A program made the position numbers and the translations under genes. A stretch of 64,000 nucleotides of DNA from Ascidiella aspersa (Eukaryota), in the NCBI GenBank assembly GCA_963924565.1, contig OZ004607.1:11036001-11100000 (forward strand), read 5' to 3'. Under the pieces are notes generated by a model. The model saw only the letters and a program-made list of their open reading frames with translations. It searched no databases and was not told the origin of the DNA. Positions within the stretch are counted from its first letter, which is position 1. Each line of letters opens with the position of its first letter. Of the stretch, positions 311-62,476 are shown in pieces.

Positions 311-3300
311 ATGGGTATGTCGAAAAACACCCGAAAGTTGTACTTGATACTGCTTTTAGCCGTTGCACTTGTCTTTTCCCACACTTTTTACTTAACCACC
401 AAGTATGAACGAGTAGTAAGCAAAGACCCAGTGATACGCCTAATGAAGACGACATCAACTATGAAACCCTTTAACTCGACGTGGACCTTAACAAGCGCAG
501 AAGTTCTATTAAAAAGGTCAAGGAAAGAATCCTGGATCAAATTGGATGACCCGGAAATCAAACTGTTGCGTAAGTGTATACTGAAATTTTAAATCGGGGT
601 GAATTTAAAATGCAGCGTACACATACGATTTTAAGACATAGGTCGCATTGTTATAACTTAACAATGTCACAACGCAGATTTAACATATATATGCAGCCTA
701 CTCTGTTTGAAGCTCTACATTGCGCTATTTTAGGATGTTGTTACAATTGCAAAGATAACAGGTTCTTAGACAGCCTACTTACTTTAATGATACCTATAAT
801 TAAAGTCTTGACTTTGTTTGATTAAATGTGTGGGATTATTTATTAATGCGGGATTCGAGCATATAATATTTTACTGGTTCATCCGTTGATCTAAAGTCGT
901 TTTTTTCTTCATGACGTCACTGGGCTACTTCTTTGACGTATTTTCCTGAAACAGAGACAGGTGCCACAATTTTTTCATACCTTTTGAAGGGTGTCACTAT
1001 ATAAAATCTATTGCCTACAGCCCTACAGGGCCCAAAACCTGACCTGTTATTTTATAAGAAAGCTAAGGTTGTTTTTACATATTTTACAAAATACTTTACA
1101 TTGATGAAATATTAACGTTGGCAAGTATAATTAAGCAGTTTATTCGTTAACCTTTGTTAACCTTTAGACTCAACGTCTCTTCACCCATTGGCACTTGACG
1201 AACCGTACGCCAGCAGAATCAAAGGAATAAGATCACGATGTGAAAAGCAAGGCGCAATTAACCCGCTTGTGGATCTTTCTGGGATGATTTATGACGATAA
1301 TCACAAAGTGGTCATGTGTGAAATACCTAAGGTAGGCTATTCCTTTAAAGTTGGTTGTAAAAACGAGTTAACTAAAAGTAATCTGTTAAAACTTTTCAGC
1401 TAAATCCTTTTCTTTATTTTTTTCGTGTAAGGTAATGTGTGTCTTTTGCTGGCTCTGTATCGAGTGTTGCCTGCAAATCTGCAACCTAGTTAAACAATTT
1501 ATGATGTTATTCAAATAACGTTCACAAATTAAAACAAATATATCAATTTTCAGCAAAAGTAAAACCAAAAACACACACAATTTAAGCAAATTTATTTGGT
1601 AGGGCAGCACAATGGCTATCTATTGGGTGCTCTTTTTAAATTGTTTTCTTCACCAAAAAGAAATTTTCACACTTTTTGAAAGATATATAGGCTCACACAT
1701 GCGTTTAAACTTTAAAACAACTGTGATCAAGCTGAGTAGTATAGTTGGTTGAGCGACAGTCTCGGTATAACGGCCCAGGTATGGAGGTAGTGGATGAGCA
1801 GGTAGCCTCGTTGTCCTGCCGGTCGCCATGGGTTTTCGAGCTCCACGCATTGTGGTGCATAAATTTGATGGCGGCCAGCAGGGCATCGTTGTTAAAGAAG
1901 GAGGCTTCTGCGTCGTCCACCTTCAAGACCTTGTGGCGGAACCTCAACGCCATTTGCCCCACTCCCTGACTATCATTGGTCATGATAGAGGCGTAATCGG
2001 TTGGAAAGAAGAACTTTCCAAGGAGAGTTTTACCTTTTCCCGATTCGCCGTGGAGCATGATATGTGGACTGTATTGGATTCCACCGGTTTCACTCCGCGC
2101 TTCCAGCCCAGCTTGAATGAGAACTAAGAGAAGCTCATCAGTGGTTAAGTTGAGGTCGTCAAATTGCACGTTTTTGGCCTCGTTGATGACATCGTAGACC
2201 GCCTGTTTTGCCTCAGCTACAGTCCATTTGGGAACCTGTTGAGCTGCCATTTTCTTTAGTGCTTTCTTGAGCTTGTTTTGCTTCTTCCCAAATTCCATTT
2301 GGTTGTAAGCTCTTTTTGCCAATTGTTCTGGGAACGAGAAGTTCGCCTGGAACAGCTTTTCCTTGTAAGCGTTCATGGAGGGTTTTGTGTCGAACCCTTT
2401 GGCTACTTCTTCGGCGATCTCTTGCCACTGCCCCCTTTTTGGGTAATCTTCTCTTTGCATCATCGCTTTTGCTTCTGCTGGTACATCTGTTTCTAGTGCA
2501 CCCTTGTACATATAGCTGACCCATGCAGCTTGGTCTTTGATTGCTGCTATGTATGTCAGGGTGATTCCTAGTTTCTTCAGCTCTTCGACCACCGTCTTCT
2601 TGCGCCATGCTGCTGCTTGCCGGCCCTCCACCTGACTCTTGGTGATGAATAGCCCATGTCGGTGGGGGCAATTGCTGTTCCCTTTCTCCAGAGGCCCCTG
2701 ATAGATTGTATAACGTGCCGTCTGTGTAATCCCACTTTTGCCAACGGTCGTGGTATAGGCCCATTTTCTGCCTCTGTACTTGTCGGACATCTCCTCTGCG
2801 CCGGTCGTATTCATTTTGATAGGTTATTAGCAAGTCTTCAACAAGCCTATTTATCCTAATGGTTTTCTGAAATGCAGTATCAAGTGGATTAGGTTTTCTA
2901 CAATTAGCTGCAATATTTCGTATCACTTCAATAGTCGGAAATATTTTATCATAATGAATTTATTTGCAACATTGAACGGTATATATACACATACGATGAC
3001 GTCATTGGTACTAGTACTGGTACTTTCATATTTTTGCTCGGTTGACACTAGTACGGGTCCCCAAAAGTGATGTCCAATTCCATGGTGTAGGGGATACATA
3101 CGAAATTGTCTGTCTTGTCAGCGTATCCTGTTGTAGTAGTTTTGTACTCCGCTGCTCTCAGCTCCTTCTTTATCGACTGATCGTACACATGTATTTGTGT
3201 CATCAGTGTTCTGCATGCTGGTGGCTGCGCCGTGCTGACCTCCCACCACGGTGTTTAGTAGTAGTGCGTGACTGTTGTATTGGTTGAGTGCGTTGCGTCA

Positions 3301-6300
3301 CTACAAATTGTATGCGTATCTGATTGGAGGAATTCCAGTGGTAGAGTTGTCATTGTCTCTTCCAGCTGGTATCTTGTGCAATTGCTGTACTCTTCAAGTA
3401 GAAATTCTGGGAATTGTCCTGAGTTGTCCTGAAATCCGTTGTCGAACTTTTGTTCGTAGTGGAATCCGTGACGTTGTGTAGCCACGTCCATCATAATTAT
3501 TGGCATATTCCTGGCATTATCGTCATGGCGGTTCATGGCTGCTGCTGGCCATAGATGTAGTTTCCAGTTTGAGTATTTCATCATAGTATATTTCGGAGCC
3601 AATGCTTTAACTCCTGCTAAGTTGGTTGCTGTTGTCATTCCGTTGCACGCGTATATCCTCCACCTTCTTCCGATGTTATTTCCCTTGTCTACTAGTGCGT
3701 TCATCTGTCTGCTTATTACGGCAGAGTGGACTATCATTAGTGATCCGGCGCTAGGCAGCAGAAGGCTCTCCGTAGTGTTACCGTCCACCCATGTTCTCCA
3801 CGTCTTGAATGTACCTCTGGGGTCGGTGACTGCCTTCTGGTAAAACCACCACATTTCCTTTGTCTGTGCCTCGACGTGTGTTGTCTGTTTGATTGGATGC
3901 ATCCTTGGTATTGGTAAAGTGGGTCCACCTCTTCCTGCCGCCCCAGATCCTCCTGCAGCAGTCTCCGACAGTCTTGCGCGCTTCGTCGGTGGTTCCCCTT
4001 CGCTGTAGTCTGACTGGGAATTGATGGACAAACCCTTCATCGCCTCATTCATTGGGCTTTCTACAGGGCTGTCTCCTGGTACGTTGGCGGGGGTTGCTGC
4101 GGTTGTTGTTGTGCTTCTTGTACTATTGTACTGTTGAATCTGATGCCAGTTCTTCTTTGCCTTCTTTGCAGGGGGCATATGAGGTAGTATCTTTCTCTTA
4201 GCTTCAAATATCCCACGTACGAGATTCCCGCTAAAGCCACCAATATCAGAGCTAGCTCGCAGTAAATCGCTGTCCGCGTTATTAAATTTGTAGTATGCTT
4301 CTTGACCAAGCTTTTCGTATTCTTGATCGTGTCGTTTACACGCTGCATCCAACGGTCCAGTGGTTTCTTGTCCTATATCGTTGAAAGGTCCACAGTGAGG
4401 ATGGCCTGGTATAGTAATTCCTCCTGTAGCTAACTTCTTACTCGACTTCCAGTTCATAATGAATCAAAACTTACCTTATTTGCATATTATATCCTTTTTC
4501 TACCTGGTACTAGTACTGACACTTTCATATTCTTGCTCAGCTGACACTTCCACCTTCCTCAGTACCAAAAGTAAGAATATGAAAGTACCAGTACTAGTAC
4601 TAACCTCATTTACATACTAGTTAGCAGTTCCTTTTACCCATTTAGCGAACTCGGTTCTGTCATAGTGGAAGCTGTGACGTCACAGTGAGCCTTTAGGTGG
4701 CGCGAAGCGCGCCCGAAGGGCCACGCGAAACTGTGACGTCACAGCGACACTATGACAGAACCGAGTTCGTTAAATGGGTGTCTTTGGAGGAAAATTCATT
4801 TTTATTAAAAAGATGAAATATGGAAAAGAGGACATAGCCATACACTCAAGATTAGAATACTATGCAAAATTGTTGAAGTCCATATTTCACCAAAACTGTA
4901 ATTTTGCCCCTGGGTTCACTAAAGTTGACATATTTGTTACAGGCGGCTTGTACCTCATGGAAAGAGCTGATGTGGAACTTGCTGGGATACAACACATATC
5001 CAGACCAATTCGATAAAGCCAAACTTTTACTTTCGCTCGGCTACCTTCCGACATTAGACAGGTGAAAAGCATTAAACACCTTTTTAACTCTAAGGTATCC
5101 AAAAAAAAATGGTATCCGATTTGTTTATTGCTATTTTATCGATTTAGTTCCATAAAAACATCCTAAATTTAATCATTGTACAATTTTTTTGGTATTACAA
5201 ACAGGGTTGTGTAGTTTAGGCCGGATACAGGATTCGAAACTTGAGTAAGAGTGGTCGAGTCCCGAGTCCGACGTGTTCAGTTCTGAACCGAATAAGGCCC
5301 CAGACGTTCCTCACATTACACCTGACACGCTTAAAAGTCGCTTATAGACAAACGACAACTGCCCTTTACTATCATGAGTGTAGAAGTACCCGAGTGCAGA
5401 AATATTATCCTGCTTAAAACCTTGGTGAATTTGTCACTTAAAATATCGCCGCTGCTGTAACAGTGATCATTACAAACAGTCGCTAATTTAAACGGCCTGT
5501 TAATGCGCCTTTCTTTTGCGACATTAAATTATATTAGTATTTCTTGTAATGTTGTATACTGACTTAGTGCACTATTATCACTGTTTTTAAATGATCGGTT
5601 GACTTTATTTTACGTAGCAAAATGATTTACTAGATTTAGGTTAAATAAAAGAATGACTTGACCATTGTAAAAGCTATAAATTTTTTTTTTAATTTTTAGA
5701 CATGCCCCATTGGTCAGCATTATGTTTAGTGCGTGTATTTTGCTTTAAAAAATCATTCTCGATATTGAAAAAATCAGTGAATCAACAGTTTAAAATTTAT
5801 TTTTTAATGCAAATTCTATAAATTGGAGATGACTTGCAATCACTAGGCTACTTGGACAGTGACTTTACTTGGCTTGTCAGCAGATAACTTGACAGGGGAT
5901 TTGATTTTTAAGAACTACTCTTCATGGAAGTTACTTTTGTAAAATACTTGACTTGGCCTTTACTCCTTTAGCAACACCCCTGCCTCTTGTCAGGTTAAAT
6001 CGTGAGGAGGCGATTTGGCGTCTTGCGACTTACACCAAGTTCTTGGTGAAACGACATCCTCTGGAACGACTGGTGTCGGCGCACAGCGACAAGTTTACCA
6101 GCCGGTCGCCTGTGTCCGGTTTTCGGCTGCGAGCCGGGAGGCGGATCGCCGTTGAACAGGCCGACGCCTACATGCACTCGGTCGGCTTCAACAAGACAGG
6201 GTAAATGTCAGTGTTGTTGTAAGCATATATAAACTGTTGCCAGCAGCCATAGTAATACAAATCAAAAAACAGCTCCTCTGGTTTTAATTGTAGACCAACG

Positions 6301-8567
6301 TTTCGGCAACCTATTCAAGCCGCCTTCGCCAGGGTGAATGACACTAAACACTTGTACAATAAACGGAAAACACAAGAAGGATAAAAAGCAGAAAAGAACG
6401 CGAGCAACGAAACGATAAGAAAACAATTAGTGATAACGTTTAGTCCTTCAGCAGGTGCTTATAGCATGCCGAGAACATCACGTCTGGTTTGACGTTCATG
6501 GTGTTACCCTTCTTATGGATGTTCCACGAAGGCGGCTTGAATAGGTTGCCGAAACGGTGGTCAAGAATTAAAATTACCAGAGGAGCTGTTTTTTGATTTG
6601 TTGTAGGCATGTCAAAGTGAAACGGAATTAGTCCAAGCTAAAACGTTTTCCATGTGCCAAGTCGAACCCACAGTAGTCTATGGCCTCTGATATTTATGTG
6701 AAGCAAAGTTATCCGAGTTGTGTGCTATTGTAGTCAAGTTTATTTTCTGTTCGAATCGAATTTAAACCTTAAAGATTCATGGACCACTTATTGTAATTCA
6801 AATTGCGTCGGTACACTGAAGTTGGTTGGTTCAAGGAGACTGTTCTAAAGTTCTAAATAAAATACAAAGTCGTTGTATGGTGGCCAGCGTGACTTCTGGA
6901 GTCAATAGTAATCTTCAGTAAATACACAATCATGAACAAGTGTTTCGCCAAAATACTAGATTCCTACTTTATACGGTGTCGGCAAAATTTGTAGCGCACA
7001 TGCATTTCTATATACAGATAACTCAGGTCTCAGTCAAGGTTTAGGAGTCCACAGTTAAAGAAAAATTGTTGCTCATGTTTAGAACAACCAATATAGCATC
7101 GGTTGAGCAAGACCCGGTTTTTCAGCAATTGTCATCGTCAGAACAGGAAGAGGTCCGTGAGTACGTTTCTAGACTCAACAATGGAGAAATAAGCTTTGTT
7201 CAATTGACAGAGTAAGTTCTACTTTAAAGCGCATGTTCGACCGACCAACTGGGGACTTGTCATTTGTTTTTGCTTTTAATTGCTTTTTTATGCCAAAGGT
7301 TCTTATTCACGGAAGCACTATATATTTATTTCGCGGAACACTATAAAGGAATTTATTTTAAAAGTAGTTTTAATATTCCAGCACACTAAAATAACATTTA
7401 AAAGTTCATATAATTTTTTTTTTATATTACGGAAAACATGACGTTTTAGTGAACGGAATATATAGTTTTTTATTGGGTTAATTTGGAAAAAAAGTTTCAT
7501 TACTTTTTAGTTAAATTTGATATCTGGTAATTAAGTAATATAACTTTCAGTTTAATTTTTATAGCTTTGCATTGCAGTCCGTTTTAATAAACCTTTTCTA
7601 AAAATTTTGCTGTTCATAAATAAATAAAATTTGGGTGTTTAGCCATGTTGTTAAGTCTATAGATTAATTTTATAATTAATGTTTAATAATCCGTTAATAT
7701 AGCTTTCAGTTGAGTGTCTATAGCAGTGCTTCTTAAACATTTTTAGGTCTGTTCACCCCTAGCATCTATCTCCAGATTTCATTCACCCTTGTCTCATGAT
7801 ATGATAAAACTATCTCGTTCTATATAACAGCACAAAATGACTTCTACCCAATCTAAGTTTTATCAACTCAAGCTAAGTTTTACCATTGCAAATCTACAAT
7901 TTCTCGAGTCCAGAAATATAAAGCTACAAAAAAAAGCACAAAACACAGTCACCAAATCTTTGTACTTATACACCCAGTGCAAAACAACTTCACCATTACA
8001 ATAAGCAAAAAAATACCAAAAAACAATAGTTTTGTAGTCGATTTTCTGCAGAGCTATCATCCATTTCTGACGGTTCACCCTTATTCACCCCTTTTGGTTG
8101 GTTCACTCCTGCAAAAATTGTATTCACCCTGGGTTGAACCATTCACCTGTTTAAAAAACGCTGGTCTATAGTATTGCATTGCGGTCCGTTTTAATTAACC
8201 TGTTCTAAAATTCTTCTGTTCATAAATAAATCAAACTCGGGTGTTTAGTCATGTTGTCAAGTCAAGTGAACGGGGTCTGGCAAAGTTGGACATCCACTGG
8301 CGCCCACAAACAACACTCTGCAATCCTTGCGCCATCAACTACGACTACGTTATCGACTTTGATCACCTGACTCGGGATTCGAACCGCCTACTCGACTACT
8401 TGCAGGGCGACAAGCCAAACGAGTGGCGGCTCAGTCTAAAAGAAAAGAACGCAACCATAAAACAAACTGCCGTGGACAGCGCCTTTGCTTCGATCAGCGA
8501 CCAAACTATACGAAAACTAAGGGAAGTTTACCAGAAAGATTTTTGCGTTTTGGGATACGATTGGTAG
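311..8567 (+). CDS. Carbohydrate sulfotransferase (CHST8-14/HNK-1ST-like, Sulfotransfer_2 family), type II Golgi membrane protein, 6 exons
   Basis: Exons 311-569, 1168-1331, 4943-5061, 5994-6200, 7083-7211, 8249-8567 join in frame with GT-AG junctions. N-terminal TM anchor LYLILLLAVALVFSHTFYL; 5'-PSB motif CEIPK|AACTSWK split by intron 2; 3'-PB motif RHPLERLVSAH; family motif DIHWRPQTTLCNPCAINYDY; C-terminal YQKDFCVLGY. Confidence 0.9.
1705..2814 (-). CDS. Rep/NS1-like protein: HUH rolling-circle endonuclease + SF3 helicase, C-terminus probably damaged
   Basis: Motif I-like RKWAYTT (aa 16-22), motif II YQGPLEKGNSNCPHRHG, motif III WVSYMYKG (Y101), Walker A HGESGKGKT (aa 255-263), Walker B KVDDA (aa 298-302). 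No clear motif C. ATG context caaaATGa. Confidence 0.88.
   Translation of the reverse strand: MNTTGAEEMSDKYRGRKWAYTTTVGKSGITQTARYTIYQGPLEKGNSNCPHRHGLFITKSQVEGRQAAAWRKKTVVEELKKLGITLTYIAAIKDQAAWVSYMYKGALETDVPAEAKAMMQREDYPKRGQWQEIAEEVAKGFDTKPSMNAYKEKLFQANFSFPEQLAKRAYNQMEFGKKQNKLKKALKKMAAQQVPKWTVAEAKQAVYDVINEAKNVQFDDLNLTTDELLLVLIQAGLEARSETGGIQYSPHIMLHGESGKGKTLLGKFFFPTDYASIMTNDSQGVGQMALRFRHKVLKVDDAEASFFNNDALLAAIKFMHHNAWSSKTHGDRQDNEATCSSTTSIPGPLYRDCRSTNYTTQLDHSCFKV
2213..2926 (-). CDS. NS2-like accessory protein overlapping the 5' half of Rep in another frame
   Basis: 237-codon open frame overlapping the Rep N-terminal half, the arrangement seen for densovirus NS2. GTG start as annotated; the promoter-proximal ATG at 2952 is one base out of frame. 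No recognisable motif. Confidence 0.55.
   Translation of the reverse strand: MIRNIAANCRKPNPLDTAFQKTIRINRLVEDLLITYQNEYDRRRGDVRQVQRQKMGLYHDRWQKWDYTDGTLYNLSGASGEREQQLPPPTWAIHHQESGGGPASSSMAQEDGGRRAEETRNHPDIHSSNQRPSCMGQLYVQGCTRNRCTSRSKSDDAKRRLPKKGAVARDRRRSSQRVRHKTLHERLQGKAVPGELLVPRTIGKKSLQPNGIWEEAKQAQESTKENGSSTGSQMDCS
2950..3049 (-). promoter_or_regulatory. Putative viral Rep/NS promoter
   Basis: 44-bp block 3006-3049 shared with the VP promoter, CRE TGACGTCA 2997-3004, TATATATA 2980-2987, Inr-like TCATT 2953-2957 directly followed by ATG. AATAAA at 2959-2964 (- strand) could be the VP polyA signal. Confidence 0.65.
3255..4457 (-). CDS. Parvovirus-like VP1 capsid protein with N-terminal phospholipase A2 domain; frame continues past one stop to 3048
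   Basis: vPLA2 Ca-loop TIPGHPHCGPFN, catalytic helix LDAACKRHDQEY and downstream YYKFNNADSDL; basic NLS-like PPAKKAKK and PPTKRAR; Gly-rich AAGGSGAAGRGG before the capsid core. Confidence 0.9.
   Translation of the reverse strand: MNWKSSKKLATGGITIPGHPHCGPFNDIGQETTGPLDAACKRHDQEYEKLGQEAYYKFNNADSDLLRASSDIGGFSGNLVRGIFEAKRKILPHMPPAKKAKKNWHQIQQYNSTRSTTTTAATPANVPGDSPVESPMNEAMKGLSINSQSDYSEGEPPTKRARLSETAAGGSGAAGRGGPTLPIPRMHPIKQTTHVEAQTKEMWWFYQKAVTDPRGTFKTWRTWVDGNTTESLLLPSAGSLMIVHSAVISRQMNALVDKGNNIGRRWRIYACNGMTTATNLAGVKALAPKYTMMKYSNWKLHLWPAAAMNRHDDNARNMPIIMMDVATQRHGFHYEQKFDNGFQDNSGQFPEFLLEEYSNCTRYQLEETMTTLPLEFLQSDTHTICSDATHSTNTTVTHYY
4061..4348 (-). CDS. Putative small membrane protein overprinted (+1 frame) on the VP1-unique PLA2 region
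   Basis: ATG-initiated 95-aa ORF with one hydrophobic helix AIYCELALILVALAGISYVGYL followed by basic KLRER; position matches X/ARF1/MAAP-type overlapping ORFs of parvoviruses. Confidence 0.5.
   Translation of the reverse strand: MQRVNDTIKNTKSLVKKHTTNLITRTAIYCELALILVALAGISYVGYLKLRERYYLICPLQRRQRRTGIRFNSTIVQEAQQQPQQPPPTYQETAL
4455..4548 (-). promoter_or_regulatory. Putative viral VP promoter
   Basis: 44-bp block 4505-4548 (39/44 identical to 3006-3049), ATATAAT about 30 nt upstream of Inr-like TCATT (4458-4462), which abuts the VP ATG. Confidence 0.65.
4636..4779. repeat. Y-shaped terminal hairpin (parvovirus-type telomere/origin)
   Basis: 32-bp stem 4636-4667/4748-4779 (one G-T), GAA/GA bubble, perfect 16-bp stem 4671-4686/4730-4745, internal loop, GTG/CAC neck, two ears GCGC-GAA-GCGC (4700-4710) and GCCC-GAA-GGGC (4711-4721). 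Confidence 0.92.
6257..6601 (-). mobile_element. Penelope-like retroelement remnant with inverted terminal repeats
   Basis: ~72-bp inverted arms 6257-6328/6527-6601. Enclosed - strand ORF tail WNIHKKGNTMNVKPDVMFSACYKHLLKD* (6440-6526) resembles the PLE GIY-YIG C-terminus. Arms contain a hammerhead-like core CTGGCGAAGGC...GCCGAAACGTTGGTC. Confidence 0.7.
7724..8163. mobile_element. hAT-type MITE
   Basis: 8-bp TSD GTCTATAG on both sides; imperfect TIR CAGTGCTTCTTAAAC / GTTTAAAAAACGCTG. Confidence 0.85.
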
Positions 8568-62110: not shown

Positions 62111-62476
62111 AGAATATTTACCGGTTATTCGTAAGATCTTCGTAAATGACATAAATAATGCAAACAATTTTTTTTAAATGTCATAACAAATTTGCCTATG
62201 CTTAAACGTTTGAACTGAGTGTCACTACATACCAAACGCTAACCCCCACCCTAACCCAAATATTGTGCGTTGGTTTAATAATTGTTTTAACGGGGAACAC
62301 TTAAATTAGTGAACGTTCCGACCATTCATCATTTCGTAAATTAGTATTACCTAAAAGAATATTTACCGGTTATTCGTAAGATCTTCGTAAATGACATAAA
62401 TAATGCAAACATATTTTTTTAAATGTCATAACAAATTTGCTTATGCCTAAACGTTTGAACTGAGTGTCACTACATA
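62111..62476 (+). repeat. ~120-bp direct duplication (62111-62231 and 62356-62476)
   Basis: Near-identical AGAATATTTACCGG...GTCACTACATA copies. Confidence 0.9.

Follow-up and report, generated by a model that had tools for sequence, protein, structure and literature searches.

Endogenised fragments of a capsid-first, hairpin-ended single-stranded DNA virus lineage in the genome of Ascidiella aspersa

Results

A truncated viral insert in a likely host intron

We analysed a stretch of 64,000 nucleotides of the Ascidiella aspersa genome (assembly GCA_963924565.1, contig OZ004607.1, positions 11,036,001 to 11,100,000), hereafter called the window. Read on the minus strand, an insert in its first part runs from a hairpin through a capsid gene (VP) with PLA2 and jelly-roll domains to a Rep gene with HUH and SF3 domains. 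The features are as follows.

~311-569 and ~1169-1332, splice contexts: probable upstream host exons
1720..1790, no strand given: host tRNA/SINE-like repeat piece at the junction, non-viral
1797..2814, minus: first 339 codons of the Rep gene, truncated immediately ahead of motif C; HUH motifs I-III, a helical linker and SF3 Walker A and B lie within it
2213..2944, minus: ORF of ~240 aa overlapping the 5' half of Rep, its start codon missing here
2945..3049, minus: VP-Rep intergenic region, no terminal hairpin within; repeat-element copy at 3006-3049, TGACGTCA at 2997, TATA-like box at 2980, AATAAA at 2959
3048..4457, minus: VP gene, ~470 codons, start at 4457, in-frame stop at 3255-3257
4061..4348, minus: +1-frame ORF of 95 aa that overlies the PLA2 region and includes a hydrophobic stretch
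~4197-4421, minus: N-terminal PLA2 domain of VP, followed by a flexible linker and a single jelly roll
4469..4492, minus: candidate VP promoter with a splice-donor-like motif
4507..4603, minus: stem-loop of ~95 nt with dense short ACT/GTAC repeats (z -7.0)
4636..4779, minus: left terminal hairpin, 144 nt, with a long stem, a mismatch bubble and a branched tip
5905..6201, plus: sulfotransferase-family exon of the host (PF03567, E 1.9e-07)

The insert likely lies antisense in an intron of the sulfotransferase-like host gene, whose upstream exons are predicted. A sequence-only reading had given it an extent of about 3.1 kb, from 1720 to 4779. Its left coordinate was too wide, as 1720-1790 is host repeat; 1723-1771 matches a tRNA/SINE-like host sequence of a different contig (49 nt, 86%). 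That reading had asked for evidence across both host junctions. On the Rep side, contigs from three public runs span the break at 1797 and two of the three reach into the host flank; one public-run contig is the same as 900-2610 of the window, with 0 differences. Among the matches listed, no contig bridged the hairpin-side junction (4779) and no public-run contig contained an empty-site joint. RNA runs did not appear among the listed carriers of the sequence either, which has no bearing on its expression.

The insert had also been called nearly intact. It is instead the left two thirds of an integrated virus genome, and this copy is dead. The in-frame stop of VP is absent from the 9 other copies examined, all open at this point, and on this ground we rejected a conserved read-through stop. 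The Rep-overlapping ORF lacks a start codon that is found in 8 of 9 regions, Rep ends right before motif C while other copies extend ~185 residues further, and the right end of the virus family is missing. The position of Rep downstream of VP on the same strand, with its start at 2814, agreed with the sequence-only reading, as did the presence of an overlapping frame in each gene. The ~240-aa ORF over Rep had no Pfam match. The +1 frame over PLA2 is open (88-99 aa) in 5 of 6 copies in the same genome and has a similar counterpart in L043, L048, L055 and L056.

Each gene had further been credited with its own promoter. For the Rep cassette this held, as a TATA-like box precedes it in 9/9 own-genome intergenic regions examined (8/9 also contain AATAAA). 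The VP promoter is a motif match only, consisting of motifs that we take to be TATA-like and octamer-like. Elements akin to the stem-loop at 4507..4603 occur between VP and Rep, and also past Rep, in other copies; it is a candidate Rep-binding or enhancer element.

Two different terminal hairpins

The arms of the left hairpin (32 nt, 97% complementary) both contain the palindrome TGACGTCA, which we take to be CRE-like. Its folding z-scores were -13.7 and -15.2, and 0 of 200 shuffles were equally stable on either strand. It had been described as a Y-hairpin: the hairpin is real and its tip can be drawn from the sequence as a perfect Y (a 4-bp stem and two ears), but the minimum-energy folds differ, being branched on the minus strand and unbranched on the plus strand. 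The core is identical and in the same orientation in the four own-genome copies that keep it. The bubble has 2 against 3 bases, presumably resembling that of MVM, in the window copy only, and is a 3-against-3 mismatch in the other three; we thus discarded its sizes as evidence and counted only its position. Palindromes upstream of VP in L021 and L025, considered as telomeres, turned out to be a host repeat also present far from viral copies (window 62232).

Other copies carry a second, different hairpin at the right end. Ten own-genome right ends stop at one place (L025 and L026 representing one duplicated insert), and 4 of the 10 carry a palindrome at the tip, with arms of 6-11 bp. The right hairpin is complete in 8 of 20 metagenome loci, with tips AAA in 3, TTT in 3 and other in 2, and with the bubble on one side in 4 and on the other in 4. 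This flip/flop stems from short-read contigs and may be an assembly artefact; the own-genome case depends on a single base of a single copy, L062. None of the stretches examined held both hairpins whole. Comparison of the copies gave a genome of ~3.7-3.9 kb with left hairpin, VP, Rep and right hairpin, both genes on one strand, the left hairpin occurring in one orientation and the right one in two isomers. Since the right hairpin of the other copies differs from the left one and exists as two isomers, it is probable that the virus was linear, as judged from its ends, heterotelomeric and replicated by a rolling-hairpin mechanism. Hairpin telomeres at both ends, a hallmark of Parvoviridae, are thus seen on the left in the window and on the right in copies and relatives.

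Rep and capsid compared with known viruses

The Reps of the family (~530-690 aa) fuse HUH motifs I, II and III to an SF3 helicase, as is characteristic of Cressdnaviricota; parvovirus Rep shares the nuclease-then-helicase order, according to the excerpted text of PMC6668415. Motif I is retained, as are a DD Walker B and an arginine finger in SF3, and motif II is atypical in that its middle residue is non-hydrophobic. With a 27-sequence CRESS profile the nuclease aligned over motifs I-III (82 columns, E 0.0035, at a probability of only 9%), versus 37 columns and E 0.6 with 32 NS1 proteins, a reference set drawn from one of the six Parvoviridae subfamilies, the Parvovirinae. The helicase profile gave E 2.9e-8 against CRESS and 1.5e-4 against Parvovirinae NS1, the former on a par with a control of CRESS versus parvovirus (E 1.1e-8).

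The best nuclease fold matches were RepB of pMV158 (Z 7.4), a nanovirus Rep (7.2) and circovirus Reps (6.4 and 6.3); no parvovirus nuclease structure was among the best 50 listed, which does not exclude one. For the helicase part, the fits to AAV Rep40, B19 NS1, E1 and NrS-1 were similar (Z 7.4-8.8). Ranking by Atlas features put plasmid pCRESS and CRESS clusters first, with a Parvo_NS1 score of 0.94 against 0.95. Foldseek on viral models returned hamaparvovirus NS1 first (E 5e-8, TM ~0.2), with CRESS Reps interleaved. In a quick tree of 27 circo-like Reps and 32 Parvovirinae NS1, which leaves the family unplaced, its members formed one clade (SH-aLRT 99) on a branch of 4.1 substitutions, outside both reference sets.

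Scanning 12 members to E 10 gave no match to PF01057 (Parvo_NS1), and neither Viral_Rep nor Gemini of Pfam matched family Reps. The proteins found in two Rep searches, 7 and 8 in number, were all unnamed, with no named virus among them; no PDB sequence matched better than E 2.8, and a plasmid search was negative. With an own-genome Rep as query, single-protein scans of metagenome and viral contigs came out empty; in a viral collection, Rep gave a single locus, weak and unrelated, and VP gave none. One Rep relative and one VP relative each sit on a public contig of 3737 nt. These comparisons, direct ones being with CRESS Reps and Parvovirinae NS1, suggest that Rep is closer to the former than to the latter and distant from both, a modest lean.

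VP carries PF08398 (E 2.8e-14), in keeping with its description as a PLA2 capsid gene. PLA2 sits at the N terminus of VP in Parvovirinae and Densovirinae as well but is not specific to parvoviruses, as other capsid clusters carry it too, and the sequence match of VP to parvoviruses is confined to this domain. Of the mixture of parvoviral and CRESS modules proposed earlier, the CRESS lean of Rep is upheld; the capsid resembles parvoviruses in sequence by its PLA2 only and Rep lies on a long branch of its own, so that a recent recombination joining a parvovirus capsid to a CRESS Rep is conjectural. The structure model of VP, of low confidence (pLDDT 52), is a single jelly roll with a core of only ~280 aa; its fold matches were circovirus (Z 7.0), anellovirus (6.8) and bufavirus (5.4), all below 8.

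We considered the possibility that the virus is a highly divergent true parvovirus of a new subfamily, with NS and VP cassettes swapped between the telomeres and a CRESS look due to divergence or to an ancestral state. Its heterotelomeric ends, a left hairpin of ~140 nt that is branched and bubbled as in HBoV1 (excerpted text of PMC8242256), the PLA2 at the N terminus of VP, the hamaparvovirus NS1 proteins at the top of the Foldseek matches and the alignment of helicase model 196-421 with AAV Rep40 and B19 NS1 (Z 7.4-8.5) would all fit. Yet PF01057 had no match in the 12 members scanned, the match to the Parvovirinae profile is weak and the tree puts the family outside Parvovirinae; Parvoviridae are classified by grouping of the NS1 SF3 domain. 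Moreover, a review places NS on the left in all parvoviruses, whereas here VP lies upstream of Rep on one strand, and the small capsid core is matched as well by circovirus and anellovirus folds, on a low-confidence model. We regard this explanation as unlikely.

Still less probable, in our estimate, is a place of the virus within Lineavirales/Oomyviridae, the parvo-like hybrid viruses, as a branch that infects animals. The Oomyviridae (Lineavirales, Cressdnaviricota; including NIH-CQV) are a ratified family with linear ssDNA, a CRESS-type Rep and a parvo-like capsid, as summarised in PMC12451638 and PMC4419787. The design is the same as that of the family here, the genome size is similar, and capsids of parvo-like hybrid viruses took the first three Foldseek places for the VP model (E 3e-12 to 1.5e-11). 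However, their TM-scores were only 0.18-0.21 and the shared PLA2 may be the cause. The jelly-roll profile matched 0 of 144 other PLA2-bearing proteins (best E 0.016), and against a 16-member capsid cluster, which we took to be the parvo-like hybrid virus/Oomyviridae group, the VP profile covered PLA2 and nothing beyond. The Rep searches, as noted, named no virus, and the ICTV summary gives stramenopiles as the likely hosts, against an animal germ line here, the insert lying in an intron-rich genome of 308 Mb whose flanking genes we read as those of an animal. As general background, Oomyviridae have identical terminal repeats and an ambisense layout, unlike the two different hairpins of the family here.

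Diverged copies in the same genome

The sequence-only reading had pictured a single fossil, but dozens of fragments are present in the same genome, with 48 DNA, 57 Rep protein and 26 VP protein matches, and virus fossils occur in at least two host genomes. The copies are clustered and nested, with sharp right ends close to a nonamer that we take to be NANTATTAC-like. Such features would suit a virus-derived rolling-circle transposon family multiplied within the genome, as proposed for a parvovirus-like repeat of the acorn worm Saccoglossus. The 24 strongest DNA matches besides the window itself, however, are only 67-77% identical to the window copy, synonymous sites are close to saturation between copies, and dN/dS is low (0.15-0.26 for VP in 6/6 pairs), the capsid being under purifying selection. 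Except for one local duplication, no complete or near-identical dispersed copy was seen; left ends are ragged. Helitron-like elements would be expected as young copies, dispersed, almost identical and precise at both ends, and none of this kind was found. The nonamer is common in host DNA and was dropped as right-end evidence. A transposon origin thus appears quite improbable; because the copies diverged under purifying selection, they point to repeated germ-line integrations.

The acorn-worm repeat (Liu et al. 2011) shares with the family here dispersed copies (more than 50), a PLA2 capsid ORF and a hairpin at one end, and differs in a Rep ORF of ~2.5 kb with a Parvo_NS1 domain, according to the excerpted text of PMC3198968. 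Its authors call the layout parvovirus-like, and as the supplementary table gives no strands, gene order cannot be read from it (PMC3198968); the comparison here is by description.

Capsid-then-Rep order in copies and relatives

VP precedes Rep in every own-genome copy in which both genes are adjacent (L021, L022, L024, L025, L026, L027, L030 and L032, of 20 stretches) and in 18 of the 20 metagenome loci, where Rep identity is only ~35%. Because it recurs in diverged own copies and in these loci, we conclude from the sequence comparisons that this order is a trait of the lineage. Rearranged joints occur as well, namely a Rep-hairpin-VP piece in L048 and, in 4 of the 20 metagenome loci, pieces of VP that lie downstream of Rep. 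Such joints could suggest that the order arose where ordinary NS-VP genomes met in a concatemer, the refutation named by the sequence-only reading, or is an assembly artefact, but this is extremely improbable: 18 of the 20 distant relatives have 138-175 nt, and no terminal hairpin, between the end of VP and Rep, promoter motifs are conserved in 9/9 own copies, and the run contig is identical to 900-2610.

Discussion

The window thus holds, as first read, the endogenised remains of a hairpin-ended ssDNA virus whose lineage places VP before Rep. The explanation that we favour, with somewhat better than even confidence, is a lineage of animal ssDNA viruses, apparently undescribed and of family rank, with the layout given above; as a part of it, we lean to about the same degree towards a Rep of CRESS type rather than a recognisable NS1. 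The general design of a linear genome, CRESS Rep and parvo-like capsid is already known from Oomyviridae. In the literature searched, which did not extend to Repbase, ICTV proposals and most subscription journals, we found no paper on tunicate or ascidian parvovirus EVEs or reversed gene order, and no title or abstract start described a capsid-first hairpin layout.

In such a virus, a terminal hairpin would prime second-strand synthesis by a host polymerase, and two TATA promoters would drive VP, with the small hydrophobic +1 protein, and Rep, with the overlapping accessory protein. The single-tyrosine HUH domain would nick the telomeres and the SF3 helicase unfold them, leading to rolling-hairpin replication in which, as in heterotelomeric parvoviruses, the right end would undergo terminal resolution (flip/flop) and the left end would be resolved asymmetrically. 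The small jelly-roll capsid would package the genomes and PLA2 would help membrane passage. Germ-line entry may then have occurred independently for replication intermediates of several related virus species, through end joining and frequently with the right end opened at the hairpin tip.

The heterotelomeric Parvovirinae (Protoparvovirus, Bocaparvovirus) share the ~140-nt branched, bubbled left hairpin and the different, palindromic right one, and flip/flop at one end only is described for BPV and MVC in the excerpted text of PMC8242256. They also share the VP PLA2 and two cassettes on one strand. They differ in that their branched end adjoins NS rather than VP and their capsid core is much larger; the family Rep has motif I, a DD Walker B and a poor NS1-profile match. 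With circular CRESS viruses and pCRESS Reps, the nearest in nuclease folds and Atlas clusters, the family shares alignable motifs I-III and an SF3 with arginine finger. Its Rep is much longer than theirs, and long terminal hairpins, two isomers among them, replace the circle with a short origin stem-loop. More tentatively, and with rather less than even confidence, we would see in the lineage a second independent invention of heterotelomeric rolling-hairpin replication in animal viruses, or a surviving offshoot of the CRESS-to-parvovirus step, in which a CRESS-type Rep with motif I resolves telomeres of parvovirus kind in a capsid-first genome. It would form a new family or order that still circulates, as the 3737-nt length common to a Rep-bearing and a VP-bearing public contig may hint.

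The capsid-first lineage shows that telomere polarity does not dictate the NS-first order of parvoviruses, and it is a virus group overlooked by Pfam and named-protein searches. It also prompts the questions of whether nicking of a hairpin by this Rep is followed by rejoining, and by which mode each end is resolved. Circular CRESS viruses are regarded as the ancestors of parvoviruses (excerpted text of PMC6668415), and there are few witnesses of the step from circular to linear hairpin genomes. That step could be put to the test in an animal-infecting lineage that combines a Rep of CRESS type with two unlike telomeres resembling those of parvoviruses.

The insert and its host site

The sequence-only reading had placed on the minus strand a hairpin, then a PLA2 capsid gene, then a second gene, and this succession was confirmed.

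Features in the window and of the repeat shared with other stretches of the genome (L numbers)
4636-4779, minus strand: left palindrome, 144 nt (fold z -13.7 and -15.2; 0 of 200 shuffles equally stable)
4457 (start), minus strand: capsid (VP) frame with PLA2 domain PF08398 (E 2.8e-14)
2814 (start), minus strand: second gene (Rep), 3' of VP
5905-6201: host sulfotransferase-family exon (PF03567)
62232-62286; also L021:7140-7331, L021:8423-8699, L025:7212-7420, L039:6150-6203: palindromic host repeat, ~190 nt

The hairpin had also been read as Y-shaped. A perfect Y can indeed be drawn from the sequence of its tip, but the predicted minimum-energy folds differ from it, one being more loosely branched and the other a stem without branches. 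The G+C content of the insert is 0.38-0.52, versus about 0.34 in the flanks. The insert is antisense to the sulfotransferase-family gene and sits between its likely exons, the upstream ones being predicted from frames and splice contexts. The next host intron (window 6257-6601) holds nested inverted repeats with arms of 47 and 26 nt, probably a MITE.

The copy is a dead fragment, and its earlier description as nearly intact had to be abandoned. VP carries an in-frame stop at 3255-3257, a site that is open in all nine other copies inspected, and the start codon with which the ORF overlapping Rep begins in 8 of 9 regions is missing from the window. Rep stops at about 1797, ahead of motif C; in the copies of L021, L022 and L026 it runs about 185 residues further and takes in motif C, an arginine finger and an acidic tail. 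The right end of the family is absent, and window 1723-1771 resembles a host tRNA/SINE-like piece found elsewhere.

A contig from the public run X1, possibly the source sample, was identical to window 900-2610 (0 differences). Contigs spanning 1654-1827 and 1733-1883 came, respectively, from a second sample of the same study (run X2) and from a low-depth run of another study. No piece bridging the hairpin-side host junction was found among the run contigs listed. Over 900-5600 the allele in run X2 has diverged by about 2% from the window copy (24 of 1077 bases differ), and a 38-base gap at 3427-3464 is peculiar to it. It differs at both window lesions, which are therefore allele-specific. One X2 contig runs from the host flank at 4778 into opposite-strand VP sequence at 3956, which may mean that the insert was formerly a head-to-head dimer junction. 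In L028, too, an inverted repeat element lies beyond the left hairpin.

Copies in the Ascidiella aspersa genome

Searching the genome with the insert gave 48 DNA matches, the 24 strongest others being 67-77% identical, and 57 Rep and 26 VP protein matches; these are match counts, not copy numbers. Among 20 stretches fetched, VP and Rep shared a strand, with VP upstream, in L021, L022, L024, L025, L026, L027, L030 and L032. The intergenic region contained a TATA-like motif in 9/9 cases and AATAAA in 8/9. The left hairpin core was identical and in a single orientation in the four copies retaining it. Ten right ends were present among 26 stretches (L025 and L026 being one duplicated insert), with Rep followed by a third copy of a repeat-rich stem-loop, an A-rich run and an end at one common place. 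Four of them stop just beyond the tip of a short palindrome, which reads TTT in L026 and AAA in L062; host end-joining at an opened hairpin tip would leave such right ends. No copy with both hairpins whole was found among the stretches examined.

VP dN/dS was 0.15-0.26 in 6/6 pairs. Rep dN was 0.09-0.25 in the six valid pairs, to which these statistics apply (four further pairs were left out), with synonymous sites saturated in five. On these values, the sequences diverged while the viruses were functional, and the copies are separate integrations.

Rep breaks within about 10 bases of one spot, just before helicase motif C, in 4 of the 15 copies reaching it (window 1790-1800, L027:7258, L027:8720 and L033:1681; L029 was counted as continuing), and a run contig has an additional joint at window 1794. 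This hot spot is possibly a cryptic nick site. Copies also cluster and nest on two contigs (C3:5.0-5.2 Mb, C3:10.79-10.86 Mb, C5:6.9-7.9 Mb, C5:29.77-29.79 Mb and C5:33.07 Mb), regions that could be small-RNA-producing graveyards. The ~190-nt host repeat, which contains telomere-like words, directly adjoins viral ends in several loci.

The gene order recurs in distant relatives

We considered the possibility that the VP-then-Rep order came from a concatemer junction. This was ruled out by 20 JGI metagenome loci, whose Reps are about 33-37% identical to that of the Ascidiella copies: in 18 of them VP shares the strand of Rep and stops 138-175 nt ahead of it, so that the order is a trait of the lineage. 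In 8/20 loci a long right hairpin (185-280 nt in the whole cases) still has its tip. The tip reads AAA in three, TTT in three and other in two (two locus pairs being near-identical), and the asymmetric bubble of the hairpin lies on one side in four and on the other in four, isomers that short-read assembly can itself produce by flipping such loops.

Rep relatives among 5.8 billion clusters numbered seven by single sequence and eight by profile, none with a named protein; three VP relatives fell below E 1e-30 among 1.84 billion. The longest contigs of P0001 (a Rep relative) and P0011 (a VP relative) are 3737 nt each, and may be one contig or two. Frameshifts and transposon-like flanks suggest that the JGI loci are endogenous to another host. 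Relatives also occur among transposon-like frames (flanks of L058, L059 and L060) or on contigs of 88 kb-3.4 Mb (proteins P0004, P0006, P0017, P0122, P0182 and P0183 are in such settings), which points to endogenisation of the lineage in other hosts. An extra ORF of 230-255 aa covers the 3' part of Rep (L043:3016-3729, with like frames in L045-L054); no Pfam match was found for it. L052, L054 and L055 have 27-36-nt inverted repeats inside both ends.

Affinities of the capsid and of Rep

In the capsid model (pLDDT 52) a disordered linker joins the PLA2 domain to one compact jelly roll, about 280 aa long. Fold comparison gave Z scores all below 8 (circovirus 7.0, anellovirus 6.8, parvovirus 5.4), Foldseek placed parvo-like hybrid virus capsids on top (E 3e-12, TM 0.2), and Atlas returned a mixture of CRESS, hamaparvovirus and anellovirus clusters. 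Sequence likeness to other groups was confined to PLA2. This domain occurs on several unrelated-looking capsid clusters (28, 16 and 16 members; P0012-P0157), some with basic N-terminal arms like those of circular-virus capsids. In 5/6 copies the +1 frame across PLA2 encodes 88-99 aa that include a hydrophobic stretch, comparable to the X protein of B19 or the MAAP of AAV.

Rep was modelled from P0001 (pLDDT 62). Its N-terminal domain was nearest RepB of pMV158 (Z 7.4, rmsd 3.0, 94 aligned), followed by nanovirus Rep (Z 7.2, rmsd 3.8, 84 aligned) and circovirus Reps (Z 6.4 and 6.3), and the SF3 helicase tied between NrS-1, AAV Rep40, papillomavirus E1 and B19 NS1 (Z 7.4-8.8). On viral models Foldseek ranked hamaparvovirus NS1 first (TM ~0.2) with CRESS Reps interleaved; by Atlas features, pCRESS and CRESS clusters came out on top, and Parvo_NS1 stood at rank 21 with a nearly equal score. 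Profiles were built from 27 circo-like Reps and from 32 Parvovirinae NS1. The nuclease aligned with the CRESS profile over motifs I-III (82 columns, E 0.0035, profile-match probability 9%) and barely with NS1 (E 0.6); the helicase gave E 2.9e-8 and 1.5e-4, respectively, and the control comparison of the two profiles 1.1e-8. A Pfam scan of Rep returned no Parvo_NS1, Viral_Rep or Gemini match. A quick tree grouped the family in a single clade (99) whose very long branch fell within neither reference set, leaving it unplaced. Taken together, we lean, short of proof, towards a very divergent CRESS-type Rep.

Placement and proposed mechanism

Parvoviridae, with six subfamilies, are classified on SF3, and one lineage with an upstream PLA2 ORF keeps NS1 ahead of VP (excerpts of PMC13426907). 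NS sits left in all parvoviruses, according to the portion of PMC11357303 compared, and the family, with VP first, departs from this. Oomyviridae are linear members of Cressdnaviricota with stramenopiles as likely hosts (PMC12451638, in part); membership of the family is unproven. No description of a monosense VP-then-Rep hairpin genome was found in the portions compared of PMC12451638, PMC4419787, PMC8242256 (also the source for telomeres), PMC11357303, PMC13426907, PMC3198968, PMC9896142, PMC6668415 and PMC5013282, the acorn-worm gene order (PMC3198968) lying outside the comparison. The insert is real and endogenous, a broken copy from a family-level lineage of ssDNA viruses that is apparently undescribed. 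We hold the architecture of hairpin, VP and Rep with high confidence, and slightly favour a separate family with a CRESS-type Rep.

The family has this gene order, two unlike ends, conserved motifs and genes under purifying selection. Its telomere polarity is similar to that of bocaparvoviruses and protoparvoviruses, but its two cassettes are swapped relative to theirs. By analogy, it may work like a heterotelomeric parvovirus: the terminal hairpin would prime second-strand synthesis, two TATA promoters would drive transcription, and the single-tyrosine HUH domain would nick; the right end would be resolved terminally and the left one asymmetrically. PLA2 would assist entry, and replication intermediates would integrate through end joining.
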